A stretch of 64,000 bases of DNA from Gammaproteobacteria bacterium (GCA_021773175.1 JAJFKO010000059.1:845-64844), one strand, 5' to 3'; positions 3,059-55,007 are shown, counted from the stretch's first letter. Program-made: numbers and translations. The notes: generated by a model not told the origin, from the sequence alone.

Positions 3059-3070
3059 AGAATCATACTC

Positions 3071-17594: not shown

Positions 17595-17796
17595 AAGTAA
17601 TTTCTTTAGCAGTCCAATCCGCATAAAAAAATGGACTGTGTCGATTCAACACTGGAAACCTGCGATGAATCACTTTATGAGCGAGTTCGAGGAGCAGCTA
17701 ACTCCTTATGTTTAGAGCGAGTACTTACACAGAATTATTTACAGGCTCATATGATCGAACCTATCTTTTAACCTCTCATTCTCAGCTTTAACAAGC

Positions 17797-18410: not shown

Positions 18411-18464
18411 TTTGCGTTGTGCAATATTGGAGGTTGGGCAGACCTAGCTTAATGGTAGATAGAT

Positions 18465-18833: not shown

Positions 18834-19589
18834 AATAGTGGTCCCCTTCAGTTAATATACCTTTGTCATTGGTATGCCCCAAACACGCCAGCGGCGCACA
18901 TAACAGCAGTTTAGTATTTGTTCGATGATTGACAGCATTCGTTTGTCGTTAATGCTCCTGGTAATGATGACCTCCATCATAACAAAAATATACGCGGTAT
19001 TTAATGCAGCTTTAGAGACAATCCGCAATATTTGCTTGGTATCATGATAGTGTTTTGTCTTCGAATGTGATCGCATGCTTCACCCTGTATTACTTACCAA
19101 AATTTGCTTTATATTGCTAATAATAGTATATATCTTTGTAAATTCCATACCGATTTGATCTACCTCCTCTTTCTGAAGCCCCCTATATTATATTGAGAAG
19201 CAAGCAAATTAATAATCAAAATATTTATTAGCATTTTTATCAAGCGTCTTTACAAATACTTTCTTCAATCTATAGAATAGCTACTAACGTTCTGAACACC
19301 CTGCTCTAGGTTCATTTAATCTATATTACTGGAACCTTCTTGTTAAGCGTTCGGGTGGATTAAGTCCTTAATGCAACAGCAAGCTACCAACTATACTAAA
19401 CTTATATAAAAACTTAAATTAAGATTCTATCTGCAGCAGCAGATAATCTTGAGATAGCCACTTGAAATATTCAAGATATTCAACAGAAGCCATAGCCTCA
19501 ATACCAACTGACAGGATTAAGTTAATGTTGTCTTAATAATTACCTGCATAAACTTTTACGTATACCATAGTTTTATTAGAGTTATAGAA

Positions 19590-37500: not shown

Positions 37501-40500
37501 CATCACCTGCATCAGACCATTTACATAAATCACCAGTCTTATATAAACGAACAGCTTGAGTGTTTGTACTAAAGGGATTAGGTATAAAAGACTGCTCGGT
37601 TAAGCTTTTATTATTTAAATATCCACGAGCGACACCCGCGCCACCAATATATAACTCCCCAATCACTCCCTCAGGTACAGGTTGTTGCATTTTATCTAAA
37701 ATATAGAGAGAAACATTCGCTAGCCCTTTACCAAGAGGTAAAGAATATTTTTGGTTATCGTCCCGCTTTAATTCATGTGTTATCGCCCCGATAGTGGCTT
37801 CTGTTGGTCCATAGTGATTGATGATGCGTAACTGAGGACTTAATGCTTGAATCTTTTTTAGTAAACATGGGCTGCTGCTTTCTCCTCCGAGTATTAATAC
37901 TTTCTTAGGCAATAAAGTAGGACCGTCATCAATACTGAGTAATCCTTCTAAATGTGACGGTGTTATTTTAAGACAATCTATATTATGAGTTCGCATATAA
38001 GTTGAGAAAGCTTGTCCATCAAGGCTATATTCATCCGTTAAAAAGTGTAAGGTTCCTGCTGACATTAGAGACATAAATAGAGTGGTATAACCTAAATCTG
38101 CCGCAAGTGTCGAGATATGAACAAAGCTTGTTTCAGAAGAGAATTCTAACCGTCGCTGTAATGCATGAGCATAATTGGTAACATTTTTATGTTCAATCAT
38201 AACTCCTTTTGGCTTACCCGTGGAGCCTGAGGTATAAACAATATAAGCAAGTTTATCTGATTGCACAGATGGTAAGGTCAGTTCTTTATATGAGCTATCT
38301 TGATGCTTGGCAATCTCAAGAATACTTATATATTCTACTTTCGTATGCTCACAAATTTCAGGTAAAGACGCAGGTTCTGCTATTAAAAATTGTGCATGAG
38401 CACTATTTAAAATATTTATCACTCGTTGTGCTGGAAATTTCAGATCAAATGGAATATAGGCAGCACCCGATTTCCAAACAGCAAGCATTGCAACAAGAAA
38501 TGCAACGGAACGTTCTAAAAGGATACCCACAAAAACTTCAGAGTCCTTATCGATGCCCAGAGCACGATGCCTGCTCATTAAATATTTAGCAAGAAGGTCA
38601 GAGCGTTTATCAAGCTCTGCATATGTGAGCTGCGACACAGCATCTACTACAGCTACCGCATCAGGGCAGGTCTGAGTATGGCTTTTCAACGATGCTAAAA
38701 GTGATACGTCCTTTATAGGTTGAGAATCGACTAGACTCCAATCATTTAAAATTAAATCATATTCTCCAGGACTTAATATCTTGTGACAAAGAATAGGTTG
38801 CTTTGGACTAGCTAGTGCTTCTTGTAGCAGCATAGCAAAATGGCCAGCCATATTAGCAATGGTTGACTCACAAAATAACGCTTTATCATAATTTATACTG
38901 CATGCTAATTTATCTTCTTTATCTATAATATCTAATGTTAAGTCAAACTTAGAAACCTTTAAACGTTGAGGATACTCTTCGACTTCGATGTCTGGTAATA
39001 ATAATTCCAATTGTTCGTCTTGTTGTTGCAAAACAAATCTCACTTGAAATAATGGCGTGCGTCGAGTATCACGAACGACCTCAAGTTCATCAACTAAATG
39101 TTCGAACGCAACATCTTGATGGCTATATGCTGCTAGACATGTTGACTTAACACGTTTTACCAACTCAATAAAATTAATATCACCAGACAAATCGCTTCGA
39201 ATCGCCAATGAGTTAATAAAGAAGCCCAGCATTGAAGCAACACTTTCTTGCTTACGGCTCGTGATCGGAGTACCAACAATAATGTCACTTTGACCACTAT
39301 ATCGTTGTAAAAGCATATTAAATGCAGCTAACATTACCATGAACAAGGTACTATCTGTCTCAGAACACAGTAATTTTACTGCCTCAACAATATTTTCATC
39401 CAATTCAAAATTATAGCTCTCACCCTCCGTTTTCTTTATTGCCGGACGAGGATAATCTGTAGGCAAATTCAATATAGGCATATTTGCTAACTGAGTTCGC
39501 CAATAATCAACTTGCTTTAATCTCTGTTCACTCGCTAAGCTTGACTGCTCCCATACCGCATAGTCAGTATATTGATATTGCAGTTCTGGGAGAGTTGGAC
39601 TCTGGTTCTTTATATACGACTGATAGGTTTCACCTAGCTCTTGAAGTAAAATTTGTAATGACCATCCATCCGTAGCAATATGATGATGATTAATTAATAA
39701 AACATAGTTTTTATCTGATAGCAGATAAAGATAAACTTTAATTATTGGCCCTGAACTGAGGTCAAAAGATTGATGAATATCTTTATGCAAAATAGCGTCG
39801 AGCGAGTTATTTTTAACATCCTTTTCAACAAACTCTATATCTACTTTTGCTTTAACAAATTGACGAGGAACACTCTTTTCCATGCCATAATGCGTTCGCA
39901 AAATATCATGCCGAGCTAATAGATAATCAAAACTTTTTTTCAACACAGCGGCATCTAACTCACCAAGCAAACGTATGACATAAGGGACATTATATGTTGA
40001 GCTAGATGAGGACTCATACGCATCTAAAAACCATAATCGCTGTTGCGCAGAAGAGAGCGGGTATGATGACGCCTTCTTTGCTTTTGTTAAAGTTGTTGTT
40101 TCATGTTGTTCTTGTGACACACTCTGATGGTCTTGAATATAACCTGATAATTCTGCGATAGTTTTATGACTAAACAGAATCGCAACGGGACAATCAATAT
40201 TAAAGTTTTTCTGTATTTTTAATGATAATTGTATTGCTAAAAGAGAATGTCCACCTAGTCTAAAAAAGTCATCATAAACACCAATTTTTTCAACAGTTAA
40301 AATATTTTGCCATAACTCTGTTAAGGTCTGCTCGGTTTTATTACGAGGTGCGGTATATTTTGCTTTAGATAATTTCCCCTTGTTTATTTCAGGTAGCGCT
40401 TTGTGATCTACCTTGCCATTAGCTGTAAGTGGTAAACTCTGCATTTTTATAATGACAGTAGGAATCATATGCTCAGGTAATCGCTCAGCTAACCATACTA

Positions 40501-43500
40501 ATAATTCATCAGTATCTAACATCTCAACTTCATTGTTATATACAACATAGGCAACAAGATGTGATGCATCACCAACTTTTGATAATAGTACTACAGCTTG
40601 ACTTACACTATCATGAGACTGTAACTCAGCCTCAATTTCACCTAATTCAACACGAAATCCGCGAATTTTTATTTGAAAATCCGAACGTCCAATATAATCA
40701 ATATTACCATCAGCTAAGCGACGGACAAGATCACCTGTTCTATAAAGTCGTAGATTACGTCCATCCTCAAGTTCCTCAGCTGTTAGAAAAGGATTATTAA
40801 TGAAACGTTCTTGTGTAAGCTCCTCACGATTCAAGTATCCTCGTGCAACACCAATACCACCAAGATATAGCTCACCCGTTATCCCAATAGGAACAGGACT
40901 TTTATCTCTATCTAGTATATAGGCGGTCGTATTTGAAGATGGTTTGCCTATGGGATAATGAGAAAGGCCTTCATGTTTGTCTCTAGAAATATTAAAGCCC
41001 GTTGATAAAGTTGTATTCTCAGAAGGTCCATATAAATTCAGCACTTGTACTTTGTTATTTTCTGGTATCTGTAACAGTTTATCAACAATTGCAGTATTTA
41101 CTGCCTCACCACCAAACATAATATATTTTAAACTAGAGAAAATTGTACTATCAAACAATACATATTCATGAAATAAAGCTGTAGTCATCACGATATGAGT
41201 CATATTATGTTGCGTTATAATATTTTTAAACCGTTCCGGATGTAATAAATCTTGTTTATCTATACAAACCATTGTGGCGCCATTCAGAAACCCAATCCAT
41301 AATTCAAAAGCTGCGACATCTGAGGAAATATTAGCAGCAAAAGCATAAACGTCCCCTTCTTGCATATCTATAAGGTGTTCTTCTTTTGCTAATGCAATGA
41401 CACTCTCATGTTCAATCATCACGCCCTTAGGAAGACCTGTTGAACCAGATGTATAAGAAATATAAGCAAGAGAAGAAGGTTTAGCAATATTAGGAGGTGC
41501 AGATTCAGGGCAGGCAAGAATGTCTGGCATTACTTGTTCAATAATAATAATTTCATTTTTAAGCTCATGTAGGAGCGCTAAAACATTAAATGTTTTTTCA
41601 TTTGTTATTAATAACTCTGCTTTTGTATCGTTTAACATATGTGCTAAACGTGCTTCAGGATAATTGAGGTCAAGAGGAACATATGCTGCTCCTACCTTTA
41701 ATATAGCTAATATAGAAATAATAAGGTCAATACTTCTTTCCATACAAAGAGCAATAAATGTATCAGGTTGAATGGCGACTTTCACTCTATCTTGATAACT
41801 TGTCCGTAAATAATTTGCCATTTGGTTAGCTTGCTTATCTAGCTCTGCATAGGTTAGAGATTTATTCTGATAAACAACTGCGATATTATTTGGATTGCGT
41901 TTCACTTGTTCTGCGAATAGTTCTGTAATATTTTTGGACTTTGGATAATCACTATTTGTCTGATTCCAACCATACAAAAGTTGCTCGCGCTCAATTGATG
42001 TTAACATTGTCAAACTAGCAATATTATCGGTCTTTCTCGTTACGACGTCTTGTAATAGTGAGGTGAAATGCCCTGACATTTGTGAAATCGTCACATTAGA
42101 AAACAGAGCTTTATCATAATTAAACCTACAACCAATTCGATTATTTTTCTCTGTAACACTTAATGTTAAGTCAAATTTTGCAACTTCAAGGCCTTGAGAA
42201 TAATCTTGTACCTCTACCCCAGGTAAGACTAATGTTGATAACTCATCAGCTTGTTCTAAAACAAACATAACTTGAAATAAAGGTGTACGACTTGTATCAC
42301 GCTCAATATTTAGAGTATCAACCAAGTGCTCAAACGCAATATCTTGATGACCATATGCTGATAAGCATGTTGCTTTTATTGTTTTAATATAGTCAATTGT
42401 ACTAATGTTTTCTGTGATATTACTACGAATTGCCAAAGTATTAATAAAGAATCCCAGCATCGTTGCGACACCATCTTGATGACGATTTGCAATGGGCGTG
42501 CCAACAACAATATCATCTTGCCCACTGTATTTATGTAGCAAAAGATTAAAGACTGCAAACAACACCATAAATAAAGTACTATCTGCTTCATCACACAATG
42601 ATCGTACGGACTTAACAAGTTCAGAGTCTAATTCAAAAAAACAGTTAGCCCCATCATATTTTTTCACTGCAGGACGAACATAATCTAAAGGTAATGTTAG
42701 GGTTGGCGCATCCAGTAGCTGTTCTTGCCAATAGCTTATCTGTTCAGAAAACCTTTTACTAATAGAGTTAGACTGCTCCCATGTAGCATAGTCAATGTAT
42801 TGATACTTTTGTTCAGGTAATTCAGGCATCCGCTCTTCAAGCAGTGCAGAGTAATACTCACTCAATTCATTTGTGATAATTTGTAAAGACCATCTATCAG
42901 TAATAATATGATGCTGGTTTATAAGTAGAATAAATTCATTATTGGCTAGAAAATATAAATATACCTTGAAGACAGGGCCATTGGCCAAGTCAAAGGGACT
43001 GTGTATAGCGGTGCGAGTTAATGCTATCGCATTCTTCTCATCCGTATGGATTTCCTCAAAAAAAACGTCGCATTTTTCATCTACACATTGATAGGTGGCA
43101 TCATCCTTAAATCCAAAATAGGTTCGTAATATTTGATGACGTTGTAGCAGAAGTACAAAACTTTGCTTAAGAATAGAAACATTTATTTTACCATGCAAGT
43201 GTACAATATAAGGAACATTGTAGGTTGCAGATGAAGAAGACTCATATGCATCCAGAAACCATAATCGCTGTTGTGCAGAAGAAAGAAGATATGAATCCGA
43301 TTTTTCTGCTTTTGTTATATTAATAATATTGTCTTTCACACTATTTTTATTAATACCACTCTTTATATGGGATGATAAATCAGCAACAGTTTTATACTTA
43401 AATAATATAGCAACGGGACAGTCAACATGGAAATATTGCTGTATTTTTAACGATAATTGCATCGCTAAAATAGAATGTCCACCTAGTTTAAAGAAGTCAT

Positions 43501-46500
43501 CATGAATTCCAACTTGCTTAACATTCAAGACCTCTTGCCATAGGTTTATTAAATTCACTTCCATTTCATCACGAGGTGCAGTATAGATAGATCGCGCTCT
43601 AAATGTATCCCATTCCGGTGCCGGTAATGCTTTCCTATCAAGCTTATCATTGGAAGTTAAAGGCAAGCTATCCAGTCTTATTATAACAGAAGGTACCATG
43701 TATTCTGGTAAGCACTTAGATAACCATGTTTGCAATTTCATGGATATCGCCATTTCTTTATTTATTGATTTTTTATTTAACACCACATAAGCGACTAAAC
43801 ATGCGACCTGATTATTCTCTGATAATATAACTACAGCCTGGCTAACATCTTCGTGTTGTTGTAATTTTGCCTCTATCTCACCAAGCTCTATCCTATACCC
43901 TCGTACTTTTACTTGAAAATCCATTCGCCCAACATACTCTATATTGCCATCAGGTAACCAGCGGCATAGATCTCCTGTTTTGTATAAAAGCAAATTACGC
44001 CCAGCAAGCTTATCTTCAGTACTTACAAATGGATTCGCAATGAAACGCTCGCTCGTCAATTTAGCTCTATTTAGATAACCTCGAGCCAGGCCTTCACCAC
44101 CAATATAAAGTTCTCCAACCATAGCAACAGGCAATAAATTTAAATTTTTATCTAAAACATATAATTGAGTATTAAAAATAGGGCGACCAATCGGCACAAT
44201 AGGTAGCTCATCTGAGCGCTCCTGCCGACAATTATAGATGCTCACTCCAATTGAAGCTTCCGTAGGTCCATAAAAATTATATAACGCAGCATCAAAACAC
44301 TGCGTAAATAACATAGCTAGTTCACTACTTAAAGCCTCTCCAATGACAAAAACTCTAGATAAGGATGTTAATTTCATACTCGCATTATCACGCAAGAAAT
44401 TTTTCACAAATGCATCAAGCATTGTGGGTACAAATTGTAATGTTGTGATTCTTTTTCTGTTAATCAACTCCATAAGATAGTGTGGGTCTTTATGCCCTTT
44501 CGGCTCCGCGATAACCAACTCCGCACCTGTAACGAGCGGCAAAAAAAGTTCCCAGACAGATATATCAAAACTGAATACGGTTGTCTGGAGCACACGATCG
44601 TCAGATGTGAAATTATATGCTCGCTGCATCCAAAGAAGCTCATTAACAATGCCTCTATGCTGCAACATCACACCTTTAGGATTTCCTGTAGAACCAGACG
44701 TATAAATGACATATGCTAACTGCTCAGCAGAAAATGGATCAAGATTATCTATAGGTTCAGCAGCGACCTCTGAGAGCTTCTCACTTATTAAAACTGGACA
44801 CGGAAGCTCATCAATCGAAAAAAGTTGTGATGCAAATTTTTCTTGGCAAAGAATTAAAACTGGCTGACTATCTTTAAGCATATAAGCTATACGTGATATT
44901 GGAAAGTCAGGATCAATTGGCATATATGCAGCATTAACCTGCATAATACTTAAAAGCGTAACGACTAAATCAAGATTACGCTCCATACACACGCCTATTA
45001 TAGAGTCTTTAGAGATGCCTTCCTTATAATGTTTGTGATACGTGTAATGCAATGCATTTGCTTTTAACATAACTTGCTGTTGTAATTCTGCATAGGTAAG
45101 CATTTCATCACGATAGCTTACCGCTATATTTTGGGGAGTTTGCGCTACCTGCTCTGTAAATAGCTCTACTATTGTTTTATCTCGAGGATAGCTTACAGAG
45201 GTGTCATTCCATTCAGTCAAAATCTGGCGACGCTCTTTTGCAGTTAATATATCAAGATTAGCAAGAGGCACTTGGGGATTTGCCAACAGGTTGGTAAAAG
45301 TCCTTTTGAACTGCTTTAAGAGAATGCCAATTGCTTCACTCTTAATTCGATTAGCGTCATATTGAATTTGTACAAATATGCCGTTATTTTTTGTAAAGTT
45401 GAAGCCTAGTGTGAAACTGTTTTTCTCATTGATCTTATAATTAGCAAAATCTGTGGATTGAATATAATCTGGATAATGTTCATAATTTGAAAAGCAATCA
45501 AATAACAAACGTTCATCACTGATATTTGAAAGTTTTTTAATGTCAGTAATACCAATTGCGGCATTGGAATTTACACTATGAATTTTTTGTTGTAATGCCG
45601 ATAAGAGGTCAATAATATTCTTATCATTATCCAGTGTCATGCGTAAAGGCAAGGTGTTAACTAGCAAACCAACAATTTTATCTGATTCCAACACTTCTGG
45701 AGGTCGACCAGAACAGACCATACCGAAAATAATGTCATCTGTATTTGTATATCTTGAAAATAAAGTCATTAATGTCATTTGCAGTAAAGTATTTAAGGTG
45801 ATTTTATAGTCTGCCTTAAATTTCACTGCTTTCTGTAAAACATTTACCGATAACTTCATTGACTTATCTTTAATAACTTTCACACGTTGAGAATGAGAGA
45901 TACCTTCCTTATAGCTAATGAATGGCAGTTGCATAGGAGAATTAAGACCTTCAACTTCAGATTTCCAAAATGCCATTACGCGATCCATGTTACTTGTGTG
46001 TAGCCATCGCAAATAATTATCATAGCTAGTAAGTTTTAAATTCGTATATTTTTCATTATTACAGTAGGCATGGTAGGCAGACATCACCTCTTTTTTAATT
46101 ATAGAAACACTCCAGCCATCCATAGTAATATGATGATGATTCCAAATGAAAACATACTTTTCATCTTCAAGACGAACCAAAAAAAACCGCATAATACAAG
46201 GTTCAGAAAGCATGAAACCCTTCTCTCGGTCATTTTTACATAATTTGCTCAATGCTCGATTGAGATTTTTCTTTGCGCGTTGACGCCAATCTAACACCAC
46301 CCAGGGGATTGTTGTATTCTTGTGAACAATCTGAATAGGCTCTGGTAAATTTTCCCATAGAAAAGAAAGTCTAAACACTGGATATCGCTGAATAATTTCT
46401 TGCCATGCTTGTTTAAAAAGATGAGGTTTACAGCTAGCCTCTAACTCCCATGATATTTGCACGCAATATTCATCAGAGATCGGTCCATAAAGATAGTGAA

Positions 46501-49500
46501 ATAACATCCCTTCCTGTATTGGACTTAAATAAGAAATATTCTCAACCTGATTCTTCTCAAAAATATGGTCTAATGTTTTTTGTGGAAAATCTCGTTTAAG
46601 TAGAAAGTCAGATGGAGTATAATAACGCTGGCTAGTATTGCAACAAGCATTAATAATATTTTCCAAATGAAATTCTAAAAGAGACAATAAATTATTAATT
46701 TCGTCAATTGAATACTGTTTAGTACTTGCATTAATTTGCAAACTAAATTTATCGTCAATAACCCATGATAGAAAATATAAAGAATGGATCGCTCTATTCT
46801 GTGGCGCTACTCTAAAGTTATCTAATGGTGATATCTTTTTATATAATGAGCTTGTTTTGATAACGCTATCAAGTTGTCCAATATAATTAAAGCAAATATT
46901 AAATTCTGGCTCGAAAGAAGCGTTATCATTATTTTGCTGTAAATAACGATACATTCCATAACTAAGTCCATTATCAGGAATATAGTGTAAAATATTTTTT
47001 ATATGCTTAATTAAAGAAAAGTAATCAGTCTCACTCTCAATTAAGCTACAAGGGTTTGTTAGAATAACAGGATACATCGATGTAAACCAACCAACCACAC
47101 TAGATACATCGATATCTTGAATACAATCTTCACGCCCATGACCTTCTAAACATAATCCAATCTTTTCTGTTTTTTGCCATGTACTATACGCAGCCACCAA
47201 GGCTGATAACAAAATATCATTAATATTTGTATTTATAAGCTTGTTGGCATCTTTTAATAACATTGTTGACAGTTTTTTACTTAATGTAAAAGTATAGGTA
47301 CCTGTATCTTCATTATTACTAGCATTATTTTTCTGAGCATGCTCTTGTGGAAAATCTTTCTCTACTGCTTGCCAGTAGTTAATCTCGTTCTCTTGCAGTT
47401 TGCTTGAACAGAACTTTAATAGAGCATCCTGCCAATCAAGAAAAGATTGAGTTTTGGCCGGAAAAGACAACGCTTTATTATCACACTGTAACTCATATAA
47501 AAAAGCAAAATCAGCAAATAAAACATGCCAAGAAATAATATCAACATATAAATGATGGATGGTTATATAAAGAAAATATTCCTTTTTAATATCATCATGT
47601 AATAAGCCTACTTGCAGAATGTCTCCATTCGAAATGTCTAACTGCTTATTCAGCTGACATACTATCTTATCAGTTTTCTGTTTTCTCAACTCTTCATTTT
47701 CTGCAGCAATTAAATGTTCATGTACCGACACATTGAAAATGTTGGTATTATTTTGGTAAGTTTGCAATATGTTACCGTCATCAAATCGAAAGCGTATTCT
47801 AAAAGTGGAGTGCTGCTCTATTAAAGCACAAATGATTTTTTCAACCTCAGGCTTCTTTAATTTAACTTTAGTTTCTAATAAGAAAGCCTGGTTATAATGG
47901 TTTTGGTTTAAAAGTTTTAATGAAAAGAAATGTTGTTGTATCGGTGATAAAGGGATATCACCTTCTTCGCATGAATTATGTATAACTAAATTTTTATTTG
48001 CATTTGTCGACTCTATAAATTTTGCTAGTTTAAAAACAGATGGATTGTCAAACACAAACTGTATTTGCAGACTATATCCTAATCGTCCAGCTCGAGAGAT
48101 AATTTGAATAGCAGAAATAGAATCACCACCCAATTCGAAAAAGTCATCATTTACAGAGATATTATCCAGCCCTAAGACCTCTTTGTAAATTTTTAGTATT
48201 TGTATTTCAATATCCGTCTCTGTATGTCCCTGTACTTCAGCTTTGTGCGTTTTGAATTTTTCTAACAGTTTTTTTCGATCTAGTTTGCCGTTGTTATTTA
48301 AAGGCAACTTTTCTAAAAAGATAATGCTCCCAGGAATCATATATTGAGGCAATATATCTTTTAAGTACTCTTTTATTTGTTGGAGGTCTAGCAGTGTTTT
48401 TTTATTAGTCAAAATAACATATGCGACTAAAACTGTTTTATCATTACGTTTAGCGCCGAGTACAACAGCATTTTTTATATCAGGATGAAGATTAAGAGCA
48501 TGTTCTATCTCTGTCAGCTCAACACGATAGCCTCGAACTTTAAGCTGGTAATCTTGACGCCCAATATACTCCACATTATTATCGGATAATACTCTAACAA
48601 GATCTCCAGTTTTATAAGCTCGCGTGGAGCCTTTCAAAAAGACACTATCTATAAAGGACTTTTTAGTTTCTTCTGGATTCTTCAAATAACCTCTCGCGAC
48701 ACCGTCTCCGGAGAGATATAACTCGCCAATCTCTCCTGATTTAACGGGTTTACGCTCTTCATCAAGCACATAAGCCTGCATACCATTTAAAACTTTACCA
48801 ATAGGAAGTGACTCTAAATATTTATTACCCTTTGTAAATGTAAAAGCCCCAATCGTTGTTTCCGTGGGGCCATAATGATTAATGATTTTTAATTTTGGCG
48901 ACAAATTGTGTAGCTTCATCAAAAGCTGTGGAGATGCGACCTCACCACCTAAAATTAATTGCTTATTAGGTAAAATTGCTTGTGGATTTTCACAATCCAA
49001 TAATACATTTAGATGAGAGGGGACTATTTTTACAACATCAATAGAGTGAGCATCCATTGTTTGTGCAAAAAGCATGGGATTATATGTTTGCTCTTCTGTT
49101 ATTAAAACTAATGTGTTAGCAGAACAAAGTGCCAGAAAAATATTGGTATAGCCTAAATCAGCATAAACTGGAGATAGATTTGCAAATTTCCCGCCTGGTT
49201 TTAATTTTAAAATGTCAGAAATAGCATTAATGTAATGGTTCAAATTTTGATGTTCAATCATCACGCCCTTAGGTTCACCCGTTGAACCAGAGGTATAAAT
49301 CACATAAGCCAAACTATCTATCGGTATGGTTATGTCCGGTGAGACATTTAAATTTGATTGTTCTCCATCATTTTTTTGAAGGTTCTCTATATACTCTACT
49401 TGACAATCTGCTAGAAAAGCTGAATTTTCATATTGATTACTTGTTAGCGCCAGCTTACATTCTGCTTGTTGTATTATAAAATCTAATCTTTGCTTTGGAG

Positions 49501-49810
49501 CATTGAGAGCAACAGGTAAAAATGCGGCTCCCGTTTTTAATACGCCAAGTAGAGCAATAATAAAATCAATATCTCTTTCAAAAACTAACAAAATAATGTC
49601 GTTGGCTTGTAAAGGATGCTTTACTATCGACTTGTATTGTTTGATAAGATTATACGCAACTTGATTAGCCGCAGAATTCAATTCATTGAACGTTAGCTGT
49701 CTATGGTTACAAATAACAGCAATTTTATCTGGGTAAATCGACGCTATTTTTTCAAATAGCCGGGAAAAACCTATATTACTGGTTGTTTTACCTCGATTGC
49801 CATCCTGCAT
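34514..49810 (-). CDS. non-ribosomal peptide synthetase, 5098 aa. Domains A1-T1-E | C2(DCL)-A2-T2 | C3(LCL)-A3-T3 | C4(LCL)-A4-T4 | C5-T*-TE*, with the terminal T and TE degenerate
   Basis: By motif. A cores: YTSGSTGxPKG at aa 172, 1703, 2785, 3859; A10 NGK/NDK. T serines: GGDS 561-564, GGHS 2110-2113, GGHS 3186-3189, GGNS 4253-4256. E motifs: PLSPIQQHFF 620, HHLYVDIISW 752, EGHGRE 889, VGWFTSMYPV 906. C motifs: HHHITMDGWS 1225, HHIITDRWS 2300, HHHIATDGWS 3375, HHLITDGWS 4442. Approx nt (±60): A1 48266-49753; T1 47996-48208; E 46631-47968; C2 45266-46543; A2 43625-45178; T2 43361-43573; C3 42011-43303; A3 40391-41938; T3 40136-40348; C4 38771-40078; A4 37196-38713; T4 36926-37138; C5 35576-36883. 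Confidence 0.95.
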   Translation of the reverse strand: MQDGNRGKTTSNIGFSRLFEKIASIYPDKIAVICNHRQLTFNELNSAANQVAYNLIKQYKSIVKHPLQANDIILLVFERDIDFIIALLGVLKTGAAFLPVALNAPKQRLDFIIQQAECKLALTSNQYENSAFLADCQVEYIENLQKNDGEQSNLNVSPDITIPIDSLAYVIYTSGSTGEPKGVMIEHQNLNHYINAISDILKLKPGGKFANLSPVYADLGYTNIFLALCSANTLVLITEEQTYNPMLFAQTMDAHSIDVVKIVPSHLNVLLDCENPQAILPNKQLILGGEVASPQLLMKLHNLSPKLKIINHYGPTETTIGAFTFTKGNKYLESLPIGKVLNGMQAYVLDEERKPVKSGEIGELYLSGDGVARGYLKNPEETKKSFIDSVFLKGSTRAYKTGDLVRVLSDNNVEYIGRQDYQLKVRGYRVELTEIEHALNLHPDIKNAVVLGAKRNDKTVLVAYVILTNKKTLLDLQQIKEYLKDILPQYMIPGSIIFLEKLPLNNNGKLDRKKLLEKFKTHKAEVQGHTETDIEIQILKIYKEVLGLDNISVNDDFFELGGDSISAIQIISRAGRLGYSLQIQFVFDNPSVFKLAKFIESTNANKNLVIHNSCEEGDIPLSPIQQHFFSLKLLNQNHYNQAFLLETKVKLKKPEVEKIICALIEQHSTFRIRFRFDDGNILQTYQNNTNIFNVSVHEHLIAAENEELRKQKTDKIVCQLNKQLDISNGDILQVGLLHDDIKKEYFLYITIHHLYVDIISWHVLFADFAFLYELQCDNKALSFPAKTQSFLDWQDALLKFCSSKLQENEINYWQAVEKDFPQEHAQKNNASNNEDTGTYTFTLSKKLSTMLLKDANKLINTNINDILLSALVAAYSTWQKTEKIGLCLEGHGREDCIQDIDVSSVVGWFTSMYPVILTNPCSLIESETDYFSLIKHIKNILHYIPDNGLSYGMYRYLQQNNDNASFEPEFNICFNYIGQLDSVIKTSSLYKKISPLDNFRVAPQNRAIHSLYFLSWVIDDKFSLQINASTKQYSIDEINNLLSLLEFHLENIINACCNTSQRYYTPSDFLLKRDFPQKTLDHIFEKNQVENISYLSPIQEGMLFHYLYGPISDEYCVQISWELEASCKPHLFKQAWQEIIQRYPVFRLSFLWENLPEPIQIVHKNTTIPWVVLDWRQRAKKNLNRALSKLCKNDREKGFMLSEPCIMRFFLVRLEDEKYVFIWNHHHITMDGWSVSIIKKEVMSAYHAYCNNEKYTNLKLTSYDNYLRWLHTSNMDRVMAFWKSEVEGLNSPMQLPFISYKEGISHSQRVKVIKDKSMKLSVNVLQKAVKFKADYKITLNTLLQMTLMTLFSRYTNTDDIIFGMVCSGRPPEVLESDKIVGLLVNTLPLRMTLDNDKNIIDLLSALQQKIHSVNSNAAIGITDIKKLSNISDERLLFDCFSNYEHYPDYIQSTDFANYKINEKNSFTLGFNFTKNNGIFVQIQYDANRIKSEAIGILLKQFKRTFTNLLANPQVPLANLDILTAKERRQILTEWNDTSVSYPRDKTIVELFTEQVAQTPQNIAVSYRDEMLTYAELQQQVMLKANALHYTYHKHYKEGISKDSIIGVCMERNLDLVVTLLSIMQVNAAYMPIDPDFPISRIAYMLKDSQPVLILCQEKFASQLFSIDELPCPVLISEKLSEVAAEPIDNLDPFSAEQLAYVIYTSGSTGNPKGVMLQHRGIVNELLWMQRAYNFTSDDRVLQTTVFSFDISVWELFLPLVTGAELVIAEPKGHKDPHYLMELINRKRITTLQFVPTMLDAFVKNFLRDNASMKLTSLSRVFVIGEALSSELAMLFTQCFDAALYNFYGPTEASIGVSIYNCRQERSDELPIVPIGRPIFNTQLYVLDKNLNLLPVAMVGELYIGGEGLARGYLNRAKLTSERFIANPFVSTEDKLAGRNLLLYKTGDLCRWLPDGNIEYVGRMDFQVKVRGYRIELGEIEAKLQQHEDVSQAVVILSENNQVACLVAYVVLNKKSINKEMAISMKLQTWLSKCLPEYMVPSVIIRLDSLPLTSNDKLDRKALPAPEWDTFRARSIYTAPRDEMEVNLINLWQEVLNVKQVGIHDDFFKLGGHSILAMQLSLKIQQYFHVDCPVAILFKYKTVADLSSHIKSGINKNSVKDNIINITKAEKSDSYLLSSAQQRLWFLDAYESSSSATYNVPYIVHLHGKINVSILKQSFVLLLQRHQILRTYFGFKDDATYQCVDEKCDVFFEEIHTDEKNAIALTRTAIHSPFDLANGPVFKVYLYFLANNEFILLINQHHIITDRWSLQIITNELSEYYSALLEERMPELPEQKYQYIDYATWEQSNSISKRFSEQISYWQEQLLDAPTLTLPLDYVRPAVKKYDGANCFFELDSELVKSVRSLCDEADSTLFMVLFAVFNLLLHKYSGQDDIVVGTPIANRHQDGVATMLGFFINTLAIRSNITENISTIDYIKTIKATCLSAYGHQDIAFEHLVDTLNIERDTSRTPLFQVMFVLEQADELSTLVLPGVEVQDYSQGLEVAKFDLTLSVTEKNNRIGCRFNYDKALFSNVTISQMSGHFTSLLQDVVTRKTDNIASLTMLTSIEREQLLYGWNQTNSDYPKSKNITELFAEQVKRNPNNIAVVYQNKSLTYAELDKQANQMANYLRTSYQDRVKVAIQPDTFIALCMERSIDLIISILAILKVGAAYVPLDLNYPEARLAHMLNDTKAELLITNEKTFNVLALLHELKNEIIIIEQVMPDILACPESAPPNIAKPSSLAYISYTSGSTGLPKGVMIEHESVIALAKEEHLIDMQEGDVYAFAANISSDVAAFELWIGFLNGATMVCIDKQDLLHPERFKNIITQHNMTHIVMTTALFHEYVLFDSTIFSSLKYIMFGGEAVNTAIVDKLLQIPENNKVQVLNLYGPSENTTLSTGFNISRDKHEGLSHYPIGKPSSNTTAYILDRDKSPVPIGITGELYLGGIGVARGYLNREELTQERFINNPFLTAEELEDGRNLRLYRTGDLVRRLADGNIDYIGRSDFQIKIRGFRVELGEIEAELQSHDSVSQAVVLLSKVGDASHLVAYVVYNNEVEMLDTDELLVWLAERLPEHMIPTVIIKMQSLPLTANGKVDHKALPEINKGKLSKAKYTAPRNKTEQTLTELWQNILTVEKIGVYDDFFRLGGHSLLAIQLSLKIQKNFNIDCPVAILFSHKTIAELSGYIQDHQSVSQEQHETTTLTKAKKASSYPLSSAQQRLWFLDAYESSSSSTYNVPYVIRLLGELDAAVLKKSFDYLLARHDILRTHYGMEKSVPRQFVKAKVDIEFVEKDVKNNSLDAILHKDIHQSFDLSSGPIIKVYLYLLSDKNYVLLINHHHIATDGWSLQILLQELGETYQSYIKNQSPTLPELQYQYTDYAVWEQSSLASEQRLKQVDYWRTQLANMPILNLPTDYPRPAIKKTEGESYNFELDENIVEAVKLLCSETDSTLFMVMLAAFNMLLQRYSGQSDIIVGTPITSRKQESVASMLGFFINSLAIRSDLSGDINFIELVKRVKSTCLAAYSHQDVAFEHLVDELEVVRDTRRTPLFQVRFVLQQQDEQLELLLPDIEVEEYPQRLKVSKFDLTLDIIDKEDKLACSINYDKALFCESTIANMAGHFAMLLQEALASPKQPILCHKILSPGEYDLILNDWSLVDSQPIKDVSLLASLKSHTQTCPDAVAVVDAVSQLTYAELDKRSDLLAKYLMSRHRALGIDKDSEVFVGILLERSVAFLVAMLAVWKSGAAYIPFDLKFPAQRVINILNSAHAQFLIAEPASLPEICEHTKVEYISILEIAKHQDSSYKELTLPSVQSDKLAYIVYTSGSTGKPKGVMIEHKNVTNYAHALQRRLEFSSETSFVHISTLAADLGYTTLFMSLMSAGTLHFLTDEYSLDGQAFSTYMRTHNIDCLKITPSHLEGLLSIDDGPTLLPKKVLILGGESSSPCLLKKIQALSPQLRIINHYGPTEATIGAITHELKRDDNQKYSLPLGKGLANVSLYILDKMQQPVPEGVIGELYIGGAGVARGYLNNKSLTEQSFIPNPFSTNTQAVRLYKTGDLCKWSDAGDVIYIGRVDFQVKVRGYRIELNEIKVTLSQHDAVKNAEVLTSNKNQNQLIAYIVLANTQQPVTSKELRRYLHDRLPEYMVPSKVAILEQFPLTANGKINRQALSAIEINADEIGTGETSQYDEIEEIVLTIWCKVLDINKVAKGVGFFCIGGNSLLAMTLCSLIQEHFSIRFPVNLVFKYSSVDEMASYIRNNLFDVSGYKFKMCVIKDRKNEYSLSTSQERIWFLSQYYGKNFSAYNMPHAYNLDGEVNIAVLEKSLDKILSRHESFNTVFIERGGQVRQKVVTNQCFKLDVIAVKKAQLPEHLKKDFYAPFDLINGPLIRLKLYNLSAKKHVLVISQHHLITDGWSVKIILNELKAIYSAYIINQEPELSPQKYHYKDFVFWQRRLLSENVFNSQIDYWQKKLKNFNIVTVPCDHKEVKQDNFLASQFSIMLNNKEKNKIHEIVSNHNVTPFMFFLSCVMSLLYACSGSDDVVVGSNVANRHYPDTGNIVGFFANSLPFRAQFNKDLLFSDLLSQVKETCLEAYANQDVPFEVLLERLKMSSGVSALPLYKVAIDYTLAATESEIDMPGFVLSPIKDDHLITKLELVFRFVEHREGLSMQLVYNNSLYNDGTIKTVFKALKDLMSSLFAGYSDKPIIEMPLFSQLKKHFQNKQKILLSSSAKQQLSFSSKVALSATKDKEFALKYKLSKIWYEILGHSNFSTKDPFYMVGANRILSIRILECINKMFNREYDLAWLFEHATINSQIHAFSAAEINTKFQPIIKYNDFGGKIPIYFVHPISSGAEVYAELAKTINEDIPFYGIDSDFVFQSSQCIKTIKALANRYLSCIRNTNHVESYCLGGWGFGGVIAFEMAQQLRKENQPVKKLLLVDSCLTTDYSLDIYQYSEKHIQQINTLWHLLPKTYKEHIKNNWKLAKDLLQNYKPEKYNGDTILIKASKETKQEASIKPIKRLKVDDDYGWKSLIDHLEIKTISATHDTILHGQALKEITDIINKL
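34517..35224 (-). other. degenerate thioesterase (TE*) domain of the NRPS: nucleophile position is Gly (GWGFG instead of GWSxG)
   Basis: aa 4863-5098. Codon GGA at 34970-34972, checked on DNA (…TTA GGA GGC TGG GGA TTT GGA GGC…). The second NRPS TE has GWSLGG at the homologous position. Confidence 0.7.
35261..35473 (-). other. degenerate carrier (T*) domain of the NRPS: Ser of the GGxS motif replaced by Arg (GANR)
   Basis: aa about 4780-4850: KYKLSKIWYEILGHSNFSTKDPFYMVGANRILSI. Checked on DNA (GGT GCC AAT AGA). Homologous to the T domain of the second NRPS (EYKLYRIWCHLLDQEKINFDEEFFACGGNSLLVI). Confidence 0.7.
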
Positions 49811-50071
49811 TCTCTACTTTCCCACAAGTCCATTTAACATAATATATTATAGTTATAATTCTTATTATCTATTTGGTATTTATAGCAAAAAATAAAATAA
49901 TGTCAAGCTGTAAAGTTAACGAGATTATTATAATTTCCCAGAAATTCTACTTTTAGTCAGAGATAGTCTAAGGGAGGATGATCCTCCTGCTTGACGTTTT
50001 TTTTGTGAGCCTATAAATTATAAAAGCATTTTCCATTTTTTTTAAATTTTTTCATCCATGCTAGAGATCTA

Positions 50072-50106
50072 CCCATTGGAATTCGAAATGCGAGAATTCC
50101 AATGGG
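50072..50106. promoter_or_regulatory. perfect 13-bp inverted repeat CCCATTGGAATTC-N9-GAATTCCAATGGG in the divergent NRPS / transporter intergenic region
   Basis: Seen directly. Sits mid-way in the about 650-bp AT-rich region between the NRPS start (49810, minus) and the first MOP transporter (50464, plus). Candidate operator for a dimeric regulator, or an intergenic hairpin. Confidence 0.4.
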
Positions 50107-50463
50107 TATATACATCATCTTATATGAAGATGCGAGAGTGACTAAAATGAGATACTTTATGAGCTGGCCGCTTTTAGTGGCGAATAGCCATTCTATGTAA
50201 CAATTTTTTCCATATGATTTATTGTCAATAATGATGTGCGAATGGCGTATTAAAAGTCGCATATTCATTTAAAGAAGATGTTACTAATATGATCGAATAT
50301 TAACACTTTAATTTTATACTAGAATTTAACTGTAAAATTTATGATAATCTCTTAAGAATGTTTATAACATCATCAGAGATAATGAAAATACTAACGCTGT
50401 ACCTAACAACTAAAAACATAAGACAAACTGATACTAGTTTGCACACTAAGCAACTAAAAAAAA

Positions 50464-51795
50464 ATGAAAGATAAGTACGTTAATACACACTTCCCACCTT
50501 TTAAGGTTCTCTTGAAAAATTCGATCGCAAGTATATTTCTAATGTTAGCTGCATTTATTATCAACTATTCATTCAACCTCTTGTTAGCCCGCTTACTAAC
50601 TGCAAAAGAGTATGGTGATGTCAATATTACAATTGCAGTTATTATGATATGTACACCATTTTTAATTGTTGGGGCAAATTATGCTGCAATGGTTTTTTTA
50701 AGTGGCTACTTTATTAACAAAGATTATTCACATGCTAAAGGCTTTCTCCTCTGGATAAAAAAACGATTCTTTCTAGGCTCGTTAATAACCATTTTTATTG
50801 GCAGTTTTGGAATCAGCCTAGAAATTGTGTTAATTAAATATAATATTGTTAACGCCCCTTTTATACATCCAGCTATTTTTTCTTTTTGGATAATTCCATT
50901 TTCTGCGGCAATGCTTATTCTGACCGCAATTACAGCAGCGTTTCAAGAGTATATTTTCTCTTCATTTAGTAACAAGGTTTTAATTTATTTATTCTCAATG
51001 ATACTTATCTATGTATGGTCAACATCAATAGGGATTCTAAATACTTATGTTGCAATTTTATGTATTGGTATAGCTTATATTATAACGGTTATCCTACAAT
51101 TAATTTATTTGTTTTTTAAAATCCCTGAAAGCTATTATAAAGCAAAATTTTTACGTGAAGACAAGTCATGGAAATCAGTATCATTACAATTATTTTATAC
51201 AAGACTCGGCTATCTTATTTCTTCAACAATTAATCTGATTATGTTAGAAGTTTTAGGTACTCACAAAGCGGATGTTGGTAACTTTGCGGCAATACTAACA
51301 ATTCTAAGTGTCATGCAGCTTACAAGTATAGCTTTTAGTTTCGTTCTAGAACCAATGATAAAACCATGCTTCACATATAATCGTCTTAAATTCCTGCAAT
51401 ATTTTCTAAATATTGTCAATGCAGTTAACGTATCCGCTCTTATTCTGTTCTCTCTCATTATTGCAATCTTTGGCAAAGAATTACTTGCCCACTTTAACCC
51501 TATCTTTGCTAACGCCTATGACTCATTAATCTTATCACTAATAGGAATAACTATTTATTTTCTATTACCTACATCACGGGCGGTACTGAACTTTGCTGGA
51601 TATACTCCAAAAATGACAAAAATCCTGTCTTATCAAGTTGCCATTTTCCTTGTTTTAGATTGTATATTGATTCCAAGATATAATTTATTTGGTGTCGCAA
51701 TTGCTATGACATCAGGTTACATTTTCACGAGTCTAATGGGGCTATTTTATTGTAAAAAATATATAAAGCAATTAAAGACATTCTTTATAATATAA
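50464..51795 (+). CDS. MOP-superfamily transporter, Wzx/PST-like, paralog A
   Basis: 443 aa, about 12 TM. N-terminal PST-like pattern …LKNSIASIFLMLAAFIINYSFNLLLARLLTAKEYGDVNITIAVI… About 35-40% identical to paralogs B and C. Confidence 0.55.
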   Translation: MKDKYVNTHFPPFKVLLKNSIASIFLMLAAFIINYSFNLLLARLLTAKEYGDVNITIAVIMICTPFLIVGANYAAMVFLSGYFINKDYSHAKGFLLWIKKRFFLGSLITIFIGSFGISLEIVLIKYNIVNAPFIHPAIFSFWIIPFSAAMLILTAITAAFQEYIFSSFSNKVLIYLFSMILIYVWSTSIGILNTYVAILCIGIAYIITVILQLIYLFFKIPESYYKAKFLREDKSWKSVSLQLFYTRLGYLISSTINLIMLEVLGTHKADVGNFAAILTILSVMQLTSIAFSFVLEPMIKPCFTYNRLKFLQYFLNIVNAVNVSALILFSLIIAIFGKELLAHFNPIFANAYDSLILSLIGITIYFLLPTSRAVLNFAGYTPKMTKILSYQVAIFLVLDCILIPRYNLFGVAIAMTSGYIFTSLMGLFYCKKYIKQLKTFFII

Positions 51796-52069
51796 CGAAT
51801 ATACAGCTGTTACTTGTTTAAAATAATCACTATAACAACAAAAATGTTTGGTATGATTTTCGCATTTTGAGATTTCTGAATAACGATAACCGTCATCATA
51901 AGCTAATACTGCTTTTATGCGGTCATGGATCGCTCGCATCTTCATTGGTGAGAGCTATATATCCCAAGACATTTGAATAATGCATAAAAATGGGCTCAGG
52001 AAGTGGACAAGCTTCAATTTTTAGTCTAGATATTGATAATGATAGTTAAATAAATCAGAATAAATCAAT

Positions 52070-53443
52070 ATGTCTCAAGAATATAGACGTCACACCAGTA
52101 ACAAACTAGATGAGGCTCCGCATAAAAAGGAAAACCTTTTTCCATCAGGGAAAGTACTCTTTAAAAACTCTTTATTCAGTATCTTCATGCTTCTACTATC
52201 TTACATTGTTATTTATTTTTACAATATTATTCTCGCACGATTATTAACACCTGCACAATACGGAGATATAGGCGTAACAATTGCCATTATTACAATTTGT
52301 ATCCCTCTTCTGCTTATAGGTGGAAACCTCGCCTCCAAATTGTATCTTGGCTCTTACTTTATGAGTCAAGATTATTCGCATGCGCGCGGATTTCTTGTTT
52401 GGCTACGTCGACGTTTTCTAATTGGAACACTTGTCATTAGTATTATTGGCACACTATTAATTACCGCGGATACGACTCTTCTAAATCTCGGCATAATCAA
52501 ACAACACTTTTTTCATCCTGCTATCTACGCTTTCTGGTTGGTCCCTCTTGCAACTTTTGCAACGTTACAGTCAGCCATTGCCAATGCATTACAGCGTTTT
52601 GTTTTATCTATTTTCCCCATAAAAGTATTACTCTATCTTCTCGCTATGCCTATATTTTATATTTATGCGGTTTGTATCGACAAAATGAACACTTATAGTG
52701 CCATATTTTGTATCGGTATTACTTACGTGATCGTCATTATAGTCCAGACTACATTTCTTTATATAAACTTTCCGAGCAAATATTTTAATATAAAAGTTAA
52801 AATGAAACATATTGAGTGGCATAAAACCTCCCTACAACTTTTTATTTCCACGCTTGCGTTCTTGAGTGTCGCAACAATAAGTTTAGTTATGGTTGAAGTA
52901 TTAGCCACACAAGAAGGTGACGTTGGAATCTTTACTGCAATATTAGCTATTACGGGCTCTTTACCACTGCCAAGTCTCGCCTTTAACTATATTATCTCTC
53001 CTATTATAGCCCCTGCATTTACACAAAATCAGATACCTTATTTACAAAAATTATTACATCACTGCAATTTCTTTAATATTATTATTACCTTTACTCTCTT
53101 AGTTATTATTATCTTTTTTGGGAAAACTCTATTAGCACACTTTAACCCAACATTTTCTCTCGCATACTCAACACTATTAATCTGTGCTATTAGTTTTGCA
53201 ATATATTACCTTGCCTTTTCTGCCATTATGCTATTAATGTATCATGGTCAAACAAAATTGCTTAGTAAAATTCTTATAGCTCAGTTGTTAATTATTATAG
53301 TTTTAGATCTGATTCTTATTCCAGAATATCAAATGTTGGGTGCTGCAATCAGCTTAGCTTGTGGATATATAACTGCGGGATTAGCCTTTATCTTCTTTGC
53401 CAGAAGACACATAAAAGATCTAAAAACATTCTTTATTCTTTAA
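52070..53443 (+). CDS. MOP-superfamily transporter, Wzx/PST-like, paralog B
   Basis: 457 aa. About 70% identical to paralog C over full length (FPSGKVLFKNSLFSIF…LARLLTPAQYGDIGVTIAII…). Confidence 0.55.
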   Translation: MSQEYRRHTSNKLDEAPHKKENLFPSGKVLFKNSLFSIFMLLLSYIVIYFYNIILARLLTPAQYGDIGVTIAIITICIPLLLIGGNLASKLYLGSYFMSQDYSHARGFLVWLRRRFLIGTLVISIIGTLLITADTTLLNLGIIKQHFFHPAIYAFWLVPLATFATLQSAIANALQRFVLSIFPIKVLLYLLAMPIFYIYAVCIDKMNTYSAIFCIGITYVIVIIVQTTFLYINFPSKYFNIKVKMKHIEWHKTSLQLFISTLAFLSVATISLVMVEVLATQEGDVGIFTAILAITGSLPLPSLAFNYIISPIIAPAFTQNQIPYLQKLLHHCNFFNIIITFTLLVIIIFFGKTLLAHFNPTFSLAYSTLLICAISFAIYYLAFSAIMLLMYHGQTKLLSKILIAQLLIIIVLDLILIPEYQMLGAAISLACGYITAGLAFIFFARRHIKDLKTFFIL

Positions 53444-53448
53444 CTGTG

Positions 53449-53525
53449 TAGGACTTACGATAAATGATAACATCAGCTTGAGCCCTCTGGGTATAATAAA
53501 GAAATCGGTGTTTAGCATAAGTCCT
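53449..53525. repeat. 77-bp MITE-like copy between transporter paralogs B and C
   Basis: AGGACTTACGATAAA … TTTAGCATAAGTCCT terminal inverted repeats. Begins 6 nt after the paralog B stop. Confidence 0.5.
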
Positions 53526-53622
53526 AATTATATTATTGACAGGACTACTGCATTTAAAAAAGTAGACTAAATGCCATTCCTAATCTAAACTTTTACAATC
53601 ATAGTTTAATAATTAAATAAAT

Positions 53623-54996
53623 ATGCCAATAAAAATAAATAATCCCCTACATAATCAACCGATTAGCGAACAGAAAAAAAACGAAACTCTTTTTCCTTCA
53701 GGGAAAAAACTCGCCCAAAACTCTGTACTCAGTATTTTTATCATGATCCTAAGTTATATCGCTATTTATTTCTACAATATCGTTCTAGCAAAATTACTTC
53801 CTCCTGGGCAATTTGGTGATATAGGCGTTACTATGGCTATTATTGCAATTTGTATTCCAATACTTGTTCTGGGTGGATCTCTTGCATCCAAACTATATCT
53901 TGGCAATTATTTTGTTTCTCAAGATTATCCTCATGCTCGCGGTTTTCTTGTTTGGTTACGTCGACGTTTCTTTTTTGGAACCCTTCTTATTAGTATAATC
54001 GGTACTCTTTTAATTACGACCGACCTTACTTTACTTAGACTGGGTATTATAAAAGAACATTTTTTTCATGTTGCGATCTATGCATTTTGGCTTGTGCCAC
54101 TTGCAACCTATGCAATGCTACAAGCAGCGATAGCCAATGCATTACAACGCTATGTTTTGTCAATCTTTCCAACCGGCGTCTTACGTTATTTTCTAGCTAT
54201 CCCAATACTTTATCTATTTGCGGTTTATGTTGATAAAATGAATGCTTTTCATGCTATTTTTTGTATTGGCATAACATATGTAATTCTTATTTGTATTCAA
54301 GCAGTATTCTTATATATCAACCTTCCTAATAAATATTTTAATACCAAAGTTAAAATAGAACATATAGAATGGAAAAAAACATCATTACAGCTCTTTATTA
54401 CTACTATTATTTATCTTTGTGTATCATCCGCCAGTTTAATGTTATTGGAAGCAATCGGAAATACGGAGTCTGAAGTTGGAACAATGACAGCGATGCTAGT
54501 CATTCTTGGCATAATGCCATTATCCAGCGTCGCATTTGGTTACATTGTTAATCCTATTGTGAAACCAGCACTTGAGCTCAATCAAATAGATTACTTACAA
54601 AAACTTTTAAATAGATGCAATTTTTTTAATATAATAACTCTTGCCATTGTACTATGTATTATTATATTTTTTGGAAGTGATTTATTATCACATTTCAATC
54701 CTGACTTTAAGCAGGCATATATACCCTTATTAATCTGTGCATTTGCATTTGCAATAAATTCCTGCCTTTACTTTACTAGAATGGTGTTGATGTTTGGTGG
54801 CGAACAAAAACTTTTTAATAAAATAGTCATCGCCCAGTTAATCATTATTGTTGTTTTAGATTTAATACTTATCCCCATCTATCAACTCCTTGGGGCTGCA
54901 ATTGGTTTAGCAACAGGGTATATAGCTATTGCCTTTATTGCTCTCTTCTTTGTAAGACGGCGCTTTAAAAATATCAAAACATTTTTTATTATTTAG
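53623..54996 (+). CDS. MOP-superfamily transporter, Wzx/PST-like, paralog C
   Basis: 457 aa. Near-duplicate of B. Convergent with hisS (11-nt gap). Confidence 0.55.
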   Translation: MPIKINNPLHNQPISEQKKNETLFPSGKKLAQNSVLSIFIMILSYIAIYFYNIVLAKLLPPGQFGDIGVTMAIIAICIPILVLGGSLASKLYLGNYFVSQDYPHARGFLVWLRRRFFFGTLLISIIGTLLITTDLTLLRLGIIKEHFFHVAIYAFWLVPLATYAMLQAAIANALQRYVLSIFPTGVLRYFLAIPILYLFAVYVDKMNAFHAIFCIGITYVILICIQAVFLYINLPNKYFNTKVKIEHIEWKKTSLQLFITTIIYLCVSSASLMLLEAIGNTESEVGTMTAMLVILGIMPLSSVAFGYIVNPIVKPALELNQIDYLQKLLNRCNFFNIITLAIVLCIIIFFGSDLLSHFNPDFKQAYIPLLICAFAFAINSCLYFTRMVLMFGGEQKLFNKIVIAQLIIIVVLDLILIPIYQLLGAAIGLATGYIAIAFIALFFVRRRFKNIKTFFII

Positions 54997-55007
54997 CCGT
55001 GCGAGCG

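Follow-up and report, generated by a model that had tools for sequence, protein, structure and literature searches.

Three tandem PST/Wzx-like transporter genes divergent from a nonribosomal peptide synthetase gene in a gammaproteobacterial genome

Introduction

The closest described systems for the genes considered here belong to the MOP superfamily (TCDB 2.A.66). They include the lipid III flippase WzxE (PDB 9g9p/9g95); MurJ (PF03023; PDB 5t77, 7wax), with 14 helices and a lipid groove at transmembrane helices 13 and 14 (TM13-14); and MATE exporters for peptides or products of nonribosomal peptide synthetases (NRPSs), namely ClbM (PDB 4z3n/4z3p), DinF-BH (4lz6), and the tryglysin-associated WgkD. 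As a rule, wzx genes are part of the cluster for their glycan, and the gene of a cluster-linked exporter commonly stands divergent from a lone NRPS gene. In both WzxE and P. aeruginosa Wzx the lumen is strongly cationic, and in WzxE the arginine pairs R44/R239 and R143/R282 bind pyrophosphate (PMC11706664, PMC3412221). Here, a stretch of 64,000 nucleotides from a Gammaproteobacteria bacterium (GCA_021773175.1, JAJFKO010000059.1:845-64844), referred to below as the window, was analyzed with respect to three tandem transporter genes, A, B, and C (the trio), which lie beside a large NRPS gene. A first-pass annotation, made by a model from the sequence, had described them as one old and two recently duplicated Wzx/PST-like MOP transporters. 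Export of the neighboring NRPS product by the trio is the preferred reading of the results below, at a probability of roughly 0.4.

Family and fold of the three transporters

The trio consists of three same-strand open reading frames (ORFs), each at exactly the coordinates at which it was first annotated:

50464 to 51795, plus strand: paralogue A, an ORF of 443 aa; PST/Wzx-like MOP transporter, the first of the three to branch off.
52070 to 53443, plus strand: paralogue B, an ORF of 457 aa; PST/Wzx-like MOP transporter, the one that was modeled.
53623 to 54996, plus strand: paralogue C, an ORF of 457 aa; PST/Wzx-like MOP transporter.

The genes are separated by spacers of 274 bp (A-B) and 179 bp (B-C). 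Pairwise BLASTP alignments cover the full length of the proteins, with identities of 65% for B and C (E 0.0), 43% for A and B (E 6e-122), and 38% for A and C (E 3e-113), close to the earlier estimates of ~70% for B-C and ~35-40% for A. Searches of the whole window by tblastn with A, B, and C detected no fourth copy or fragment.

Taken singly, the three proteins score below the Pfam gathering score of 28.2 bits for PF01943 (Polysacc_synt), with 24.9 bits for A, 11.9 bits for B, and no match for C; none of them matches MatE (PF01554) or MurJ in Pfam, nor any NCBIfam model, and a three-sequence profile of the trio found nothing credible among PDB sequences. Relatives were collected by an exhaustive HMMER search with the same three-sequence profile over 1.84 billion representative proteins. 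This search revealed a real family of 8,435 sequences at E<=1e-3, of which 116 had E<=1e-30, all with full-length alignments. PF01943 was matched by 27 of the closest 36 relatives and MatE by 8 of the 36, while the majority consensus of 148 clade members scored 91.6 bits with PF01943, 43.2 bits with MurJ, and 36 bits with MatE, the last match being confined to the C-terminal lobe. A profile built from the 36 sequences reached proteins named "O-antigen/teichoic acid export membrane protein" by the Joint Genome Institute at E 1.5e-36; its sole match among PDB sequences was the C-terminal lobe of the MATE transporter DinF-BH (E 6e-6). The family also gave a weak NCBIfam match to the peptide-exporting MATE protein WgkD, with a score of 34.7 where the cut-off is 510.

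With the 36-sequence alignment as input, AlphaFold2 gave a confident model of B (pLDDT 91.0, pTM 0.89) that is all helical, with ~12 membrane helices in 457 residues, both ends inside, and no extra C-terminal helix pair. The helices form the two six-helix bundles of the V-shaped 12-helix MOP fold, unlike MurJ with its 14. A Foldseek search with this model returned WzxE first (E 4e-8, TM scores 0.71/0.78), followed by MurJ and MATE structures. Thus, A, B, and C are almost certainly MOP/PST-like transporters: membership in the MOP superfamily is secure, and the PST branch (Wzx-like, PF01943) is their best sequence home at the family level, whereas Wzx, MurJ, and MATE are not separable by fold alone. 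The first-pass annotation had proposed a profile search and a topology prediction as checks of its class call. That call proved right, since PF01943 is the best family-level Pfam match and the model of B gives ~12 transmembrane helices, with the reservation that A, B, and C individually fall below the gathering score.

A divergent clade of stand-alone transporters

The closest relatives of the trio reach no more than ~34% identity in either protein collection, and a search of genome contigs with the trio profile gave no match. The few relatives with a taxon name come from chlamydial metagenome-assembled genomes (MAGs) of Rhabdochlamydiaceae, Simkaniaceae, and Chlamydiia. Four members of the clade, three of them with such a name, are the following:

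P0008.
P0009 (MDN3505400.1), Rhabdochlamydiaceae.
P0014 (MCI5053099.1), Simkaniaceae.
P0017 (MCH9614577.1), Chlamydiia.

These four are full-length homologues of the trio (229-307 bits with the trio profile, 27-34% identity) and share with it the motifs LAR-x-L, YGD, W156/P159, W250, and HF(G/N)P; unlike the trio, they are single-copy, never lie beside an NRPS gene, and belong to a clade whose conserved R91 and D271 the trio has lost.

Genomic context was examined for ten relatives. The relative was single-copy in all ten, and no context had an NRPS gene beside it or a Wzx/Wzy-type glycan cluster around it. Glycosyltransferase (GT) genes in these contexts amounted to a weak GT25 match and a pair of GT41 genes, all at a distance of ~4 kb. 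Among the neighbors are an FKBP/purL pair and putA, with the relative between them; groES/EL; three tandem MFS transporters; a methyltransferase and PhyH; and a FemAB-like acetyltransferase. The lack of a glycan cluster in all ten contexts indicates that this clade is unlike classical O-antigen wzx, and the NRPS neighborhood is peculiar to the present genome. A, B, and C belong to a divergent, functionally uncharacterized clade on the PST branch, with 116 representatives at E<=1e-30 and ~2,100 at E<=1e-10. The relatives of the trio are encoded by stand-alone genes outside glycan clusters, and the clade is worth a functional test.

One of these contexts, metagenome contig L086 (8001-13179), carries a NUDIX gene, then P0009, then, directly after it, the three tandem MFS transporters, and its transporter copy shares a 90% cluster with the Rhabdochlamydiaceae MAG protein. 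Here too, a member of the clade thus has tandem transporter genes at its side.

Residues of the lumen and the Wzx alternative

Few lysine or arginine residues fall within the predicted helices (R57, K185, and K352, as placed from the sequence). Position 91 (B numbering) is basic in 78% of the family; the trio has L, V, and L there, and S, N, and S at position 271, where the clade conserves an acidic residue. Three acidic residues, D66, E276, and D413, are invariant in A, B, and C, and D66 and E276 are also well conserved across the 36-sequence alignment. Judged from the sequences, the cationic-lumen hallmark of Wzx is not obvious in the trio.

These residues bear on the possibility that A, B, and C are true Wzx flippases for oligosaccharides linked to undecaprenyl diphosphate, the three copies serving three repeat units or precursors of glycan pathways encoded elsewhere in the genome. 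Such a role would agree with the PF01943 score of the consensus, with WzxE as the top structural match, with the name "oligosaccharide flippase family protein" given by NCBI to one relative, and with a helix count of 12, against 14 in MurJ. It is nevertheless fairly improbable, given the loss of the basic residue at position 91 and the acidic residue at 271, the scarcity of Lys/Arg in the predicted helices, and the absence of any initiating transferase, glycosyltransferase, Wzy, or WaaL gene from the insertion described below, from its vicinity, and from the ten contexts of relatives. WzxE itself shares just 13-16% identity with the trio, which has no glycan-assembly genes nearby and lies beside an NRPS gene.

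One insertion holding the NRPS gene and the trio

The setting of the trio is defined by the following features:

34350 to 55007: insertion of 20,658 bp between yfgM and hisS, containing just the NRPS gene and the three transporter genes.
34514 to 49810, minus strand: NRPS gene encoding 5,098 aa, with four adenylation modules, assigned from core-motif positions.
49811 to 50463: divergent spacer of 653 bp between the NRPS start and gene A, the presumed promoter region for both sides.

The trio had been placed immediately beside the NRPS gene, and it is indeed divergent from it across the 653-bp spacer. The flanking genes form a conserved gammaproteobacterial row, ndk-rlmN-pilW-rodZ-hisS on one side and yfgM-bamB-der on the other. 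Among 80 other gammaproteobacterial loci, each centered on a homologue of HisS, yfgM followed hisS in 77, with a gap of 5-518 bp (median 49) against 20,658 bp here, and bamB was never more than 1.3 kb away. The best HisS matches in a scan of genome contigs had 61-62% identity and came from Methylococcales and others. Within 34350-55007 there is no other transporter gene and no glycosyltransferase, polymerase, or ligase gene; likewise, no glycan-assembly gene (initiating phosphoglycosyl transferase, glycosyltransferase, Wzy, or WaaL) was found in the insertion or its flanks. The trio and the synthetase thus lie in one accessory unit, divergently arranged, and the fact that they are the sole contents of a single insertion is the strongest argument that they belong together, because two separate insertions at the same hisS-yfgM junction would otherwise be needed.

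The GC content at third codon positions (GC3) of the inserted genes is 0.25-0.29, the low end of the 0.25-0.38 of the flanking genes, so that none of them is a compositional outlier. Recent horizontal transfer was considered on grounds of composition and rejected, since the GC3 of the NRPS gene and the trio is the same as that of host genes. Gene C and the convergent hisS have their stop codons 11 bp apart, and this tight junction, together with the host-like GC3, argues against a recent joint arrival.

By its core motifs, the NRPS has the layout A-T-E-C-A-T-C-A-T-C-A-T-C-T*-TE*, where A stands for adenylation, T for carrier, E for epimerization, C for condensation, and TE for thioesterase domains. 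It opens with an A domain and not with a lipo-initiation C domain. The last carrier-domain motif (35348-35371) reads GANRI instead of GG(H/D/N)S(I/L), and the terminal thioesterase motif (34961-34978) reads GWGFGG, with glycine in place of the expected nucleophilic serine. The best homologues of this terminal C-T-TE portion have only ~30% identity. From these motifs, the terminal C-T-TE of the large NRPS may be catalytically dead, with release via the last C domain.

A second NRPS gene, at 60296-63988 on the minus strand, runs off the end of the window; its product ends in C-A-T-TE, with canonical GWSLGG and GGNSL motifs. It lies beyond the hisS-ndk block and cysZ, so that this row of housekeeping genes has an NRPS gene on either side.

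What the trio may transport

Export of the NRPS product is suggested by several lines taken together: the position of the trio, the lack of glycan genes, membership in a clade that is not Wzx-like, the MATE-like traits of the family, and the precedents of MOP proteins that export peptides, among which ClbM of the colibactin island is one of the fold matches. In such a scheme, A, B, and C would be 12-helix inner-membrane transporters working by an alternating-access rocker-switch, as in WzxE, MurJ, and MATE proteins; they would clear the NRPS tetrapeptide, or its variants or intermediates, from the cytoplasm, serving either secretion or self-protection; and the three copies would have diverged in substrate preference. 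The resemblance to the known MATE exporters of peptides and NRPS products has its limit, in that the trio itself has no MatE match and the MatE score of the family consensus (36 bits) is below its PST score (91.6 bits).

Several observations weigh against this proposal. Position is the sole tie between the trio and the NRPS, and none of the ten relatives adjoins an NRPS gene, all of them being single-copy among housekeeping or miscellaneous genes, which raises the possibility that the ancestor of the trio sat beside hisS before the NRPS gene arrived. The best sequence family (PST) and the top Foldseek match (WzxE) are lipid-linked glycan flippases, and the NRPS lacks the lipo-initiation domain that would give a lipid-like substrate. 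Three exporters for one tetrapeptide exceed need. Neither the NRPS (~30%) nor the trio (34%) has a close homologue, so there is no orthologous island to compare. Literature searches turned up neither a PST/Wzx protein acting for an NRPS cluster nor any description of this clade.

The same observations lend themselves to another account, in which the job of the trio is unrelated to either neighbor and consists of general small-molecule or envelope-lipid transport, presumably the task of stand-alone clade members in chlamydiae and other bacteria: an ancestral single copy beside hisS would have triplicated, and the NRPS gene would have landed there by chance. The ten relatives, all single genes in non-biosynthetic surroundings, fit this account, as do the 11-bp C-hisS junction and the host-like GC3, which point to long residence. 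Set against it are the 77 of 80 loci in which hisS and yfgM are adjacent without an insert, so that the trio and the NRPS gene would require two independent insertions, and the arrangement itself, a divergent transporter beside a lone NRPS gene being what is usually seen for cluster-linked exporters. An unrelated role is somewhat less likely than export of the NRPS product.

A more specific version of the proposal that the trio exports the NRPS product is that a clade of the PST/Wzx branch left lipid-linked glycan flipping and was, in this genome, triplicated and recruited as an exporter of the NRPS peptide, which is on balance doubtful. In a bolder form still, a membrane lipid might accept the peptide, which would then be flipped in lipid-linked form; the idea is prompted by the last C domain of the NRPS, behind which stand a carrier and a thioesterase domain whose key serines are apparently missing. 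If recruitment did occur, it would mean a new substrate class for Wzx-like proteins and a role outside lipid-linked glycan transport, and it would be worthwhile for genome-mining tools to include PF01943-like genes among the exporter candidates of biosynthetic clusters. Otherwise, the trio is one more family of tandem paralogues, its proteins of a common kind and its setting somewhat out of the ordinary.

Age of the duplications

The history of the copies was examined with a neighbor-joining tree of the 36 closest sequences and 200 bootstraps. A, B, and C form one clade and B groups with C, giving the topology ((B,C),A), each grouping being recovered in 199 of the 200 bootstraps. The closest outsiders to the trio are P0008 and P0012, the latter carrying just a weak MatE match. 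Because the trio is monophyletic in the tree, the triplication took place within this lineage.

B and C are 68% identical in DNA. Their synonymous sites are essentially saturated, with a proportion of synonymous differences (pS) of 0.66 and a corrected synonymous divergence (dS) of ~1.6, and comparisons of A with B or C are beyond correction. The ratio of nonsynonymous to synonymous divergence (dN/dS) is ~0.16 for B and C; all three copies have been kept under purifying selection. Constraint is uneven along the protein: the proportion of nonsynonymous differences (pN) is 0.13-0.15 for residues 51-200, in the N-terminal lobe, versus 0.30 for residues 251-400, in the C-terminal lobe, at similar synonymous divergence. 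The C-terminal six-helix lobe has thus changed at about twice the rate of the N-terminal one, a pattern that would fit diverging specificity.

These results show that the trio arose by two old tandem duplications in this lineage. The topology of one older and two younger paralogues, as first annotated, stands, whereas their description as recent does not, since the synonymous sites of B and C are saturated. The 65% protein identity of this pair reflects an old, not a recent, duplication, and unless the trio does export the NRPS peptide, this correction is its main value.

The inverted-repeat element between B and C

The A-B and B-C spacers share no similarity. The latter contains a repeat element:

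53449 to 53526, no strand assigned: inverted-repeat element of 78 nt with 16-nt arms, resembling miniature inverted-repeat transposable elements (MITEs) or repetitive extragenic palindromes (REPs).

The first-pass annotation had noted a MITE copy at this place and had suggested that the repeat was involved in the duplication or rearrangement. The element is real: its arms (53449-53464 and 53511-53526) are 88% complementary, and the window has 7 copies of the terminus TAGGACTTAYG where 1.4 would be expected, with none of 100 shuffles yielding as many and every copy lying between genes. A role in the duplication finds no support, given that the element is absent from the A-B spacer and that one of its arms matches another copy at 16 of 16 positions. 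As this arm is intact while the flanking genes have diverged to saturation, the element most likely arrived after the duplication.

More broadly, the terminus TAGGACTTAYGMTAAAYACC marks a dispersed intergenic repeat family in the window, with copies at 16828, 21290, 23763, 27375, 53449/53526, and 59360. A stretch of more than 60 nt common to the copies at 16828 and 27375 shows that longer family members exist.

The GT87 genes at the other end of the window

The window holds a second set of three membrane-protein genes, first annotated as a GT-C-like trio at 538-5817:

538 to 1908: GT87 gene (PF09594).
3071 to 4498: GT87 gene (PF09594).
4426 to 5817: GT87 gene (PF09594).

All three are real GT87 genes, with Pfam scores of 92-99 bits, but they are not contiguous, as mltG lies between them. 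The paralogues are 30-35% identical to each other and are inserted in a plsX-fabD-fabG-fabF row.

It had been speculated that both sets feed a joint pathway, the MOP trio supplying flipped polyprenyl-linked sugars to the GT87 trio in one or three periplasmic routes. GT87 enzymes do take their sugars from polyprenyl-phosphate donors at the outward-facing side of the membrane, their assignment here is solid, and both sets have three members. A distance of 45 kb and more than 25 unrelated genes, however, separate the two sets, no GT87 gene was found near any relative of the trio among the contexts examined, and the GT87 paralogues differ in age from B and C. Moreover, the known flippases for polyprenyl-monophosphate sugars belong to other families, namely GtrA- and ArnE/F-like ones. 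The proposed link has no support beyond the number three, making a joint pathway most improbable.

Minor features of the window

Around the insertion, the 653-bp spacer between the NRPS gene and A contains a doubtful 85-aa ORF without a Pfam match. A scan of 49700-55100 for promoter- and terminator-like sequences found no enrichment over shuffles, and an Rfam scan of 49000-56000 gave no match. In the A-B spacer, a 57-aa ORF (51772-51945, minus strand) has a weak match to HTH_23 (E 0.028). A remnant of a transposase N-terminus was considered for this spacer and dropped, as the ORF is unlike the helix-turn-helix (HTH) protein at 20349-21158 and has no plasmid match by tblastn.

The gap between rodZ and hisS is 7 bp here (55008-56874 region), compared with ~2 kb in many of the compared gammaproteobacterial loci, where the intervening position is usually occupied by ispG; the gene of this gap seems to lie elsewhere in the present genome.

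Farther from the trio, the region 17490-19590 comprises ~2 kb with short ORFs alone (87, 122, and 74 aa). The ORFs of 159 aa and 218 aa that flank it have no Pfam match, and the 122-aa ORF within it has a putative signal peptide, as judged by eye. At 13055-13897, on the minus strand, a shikimate-kinase-like domain (PF01202) is fused to a LuxR-type GerE DNA-binding domain.

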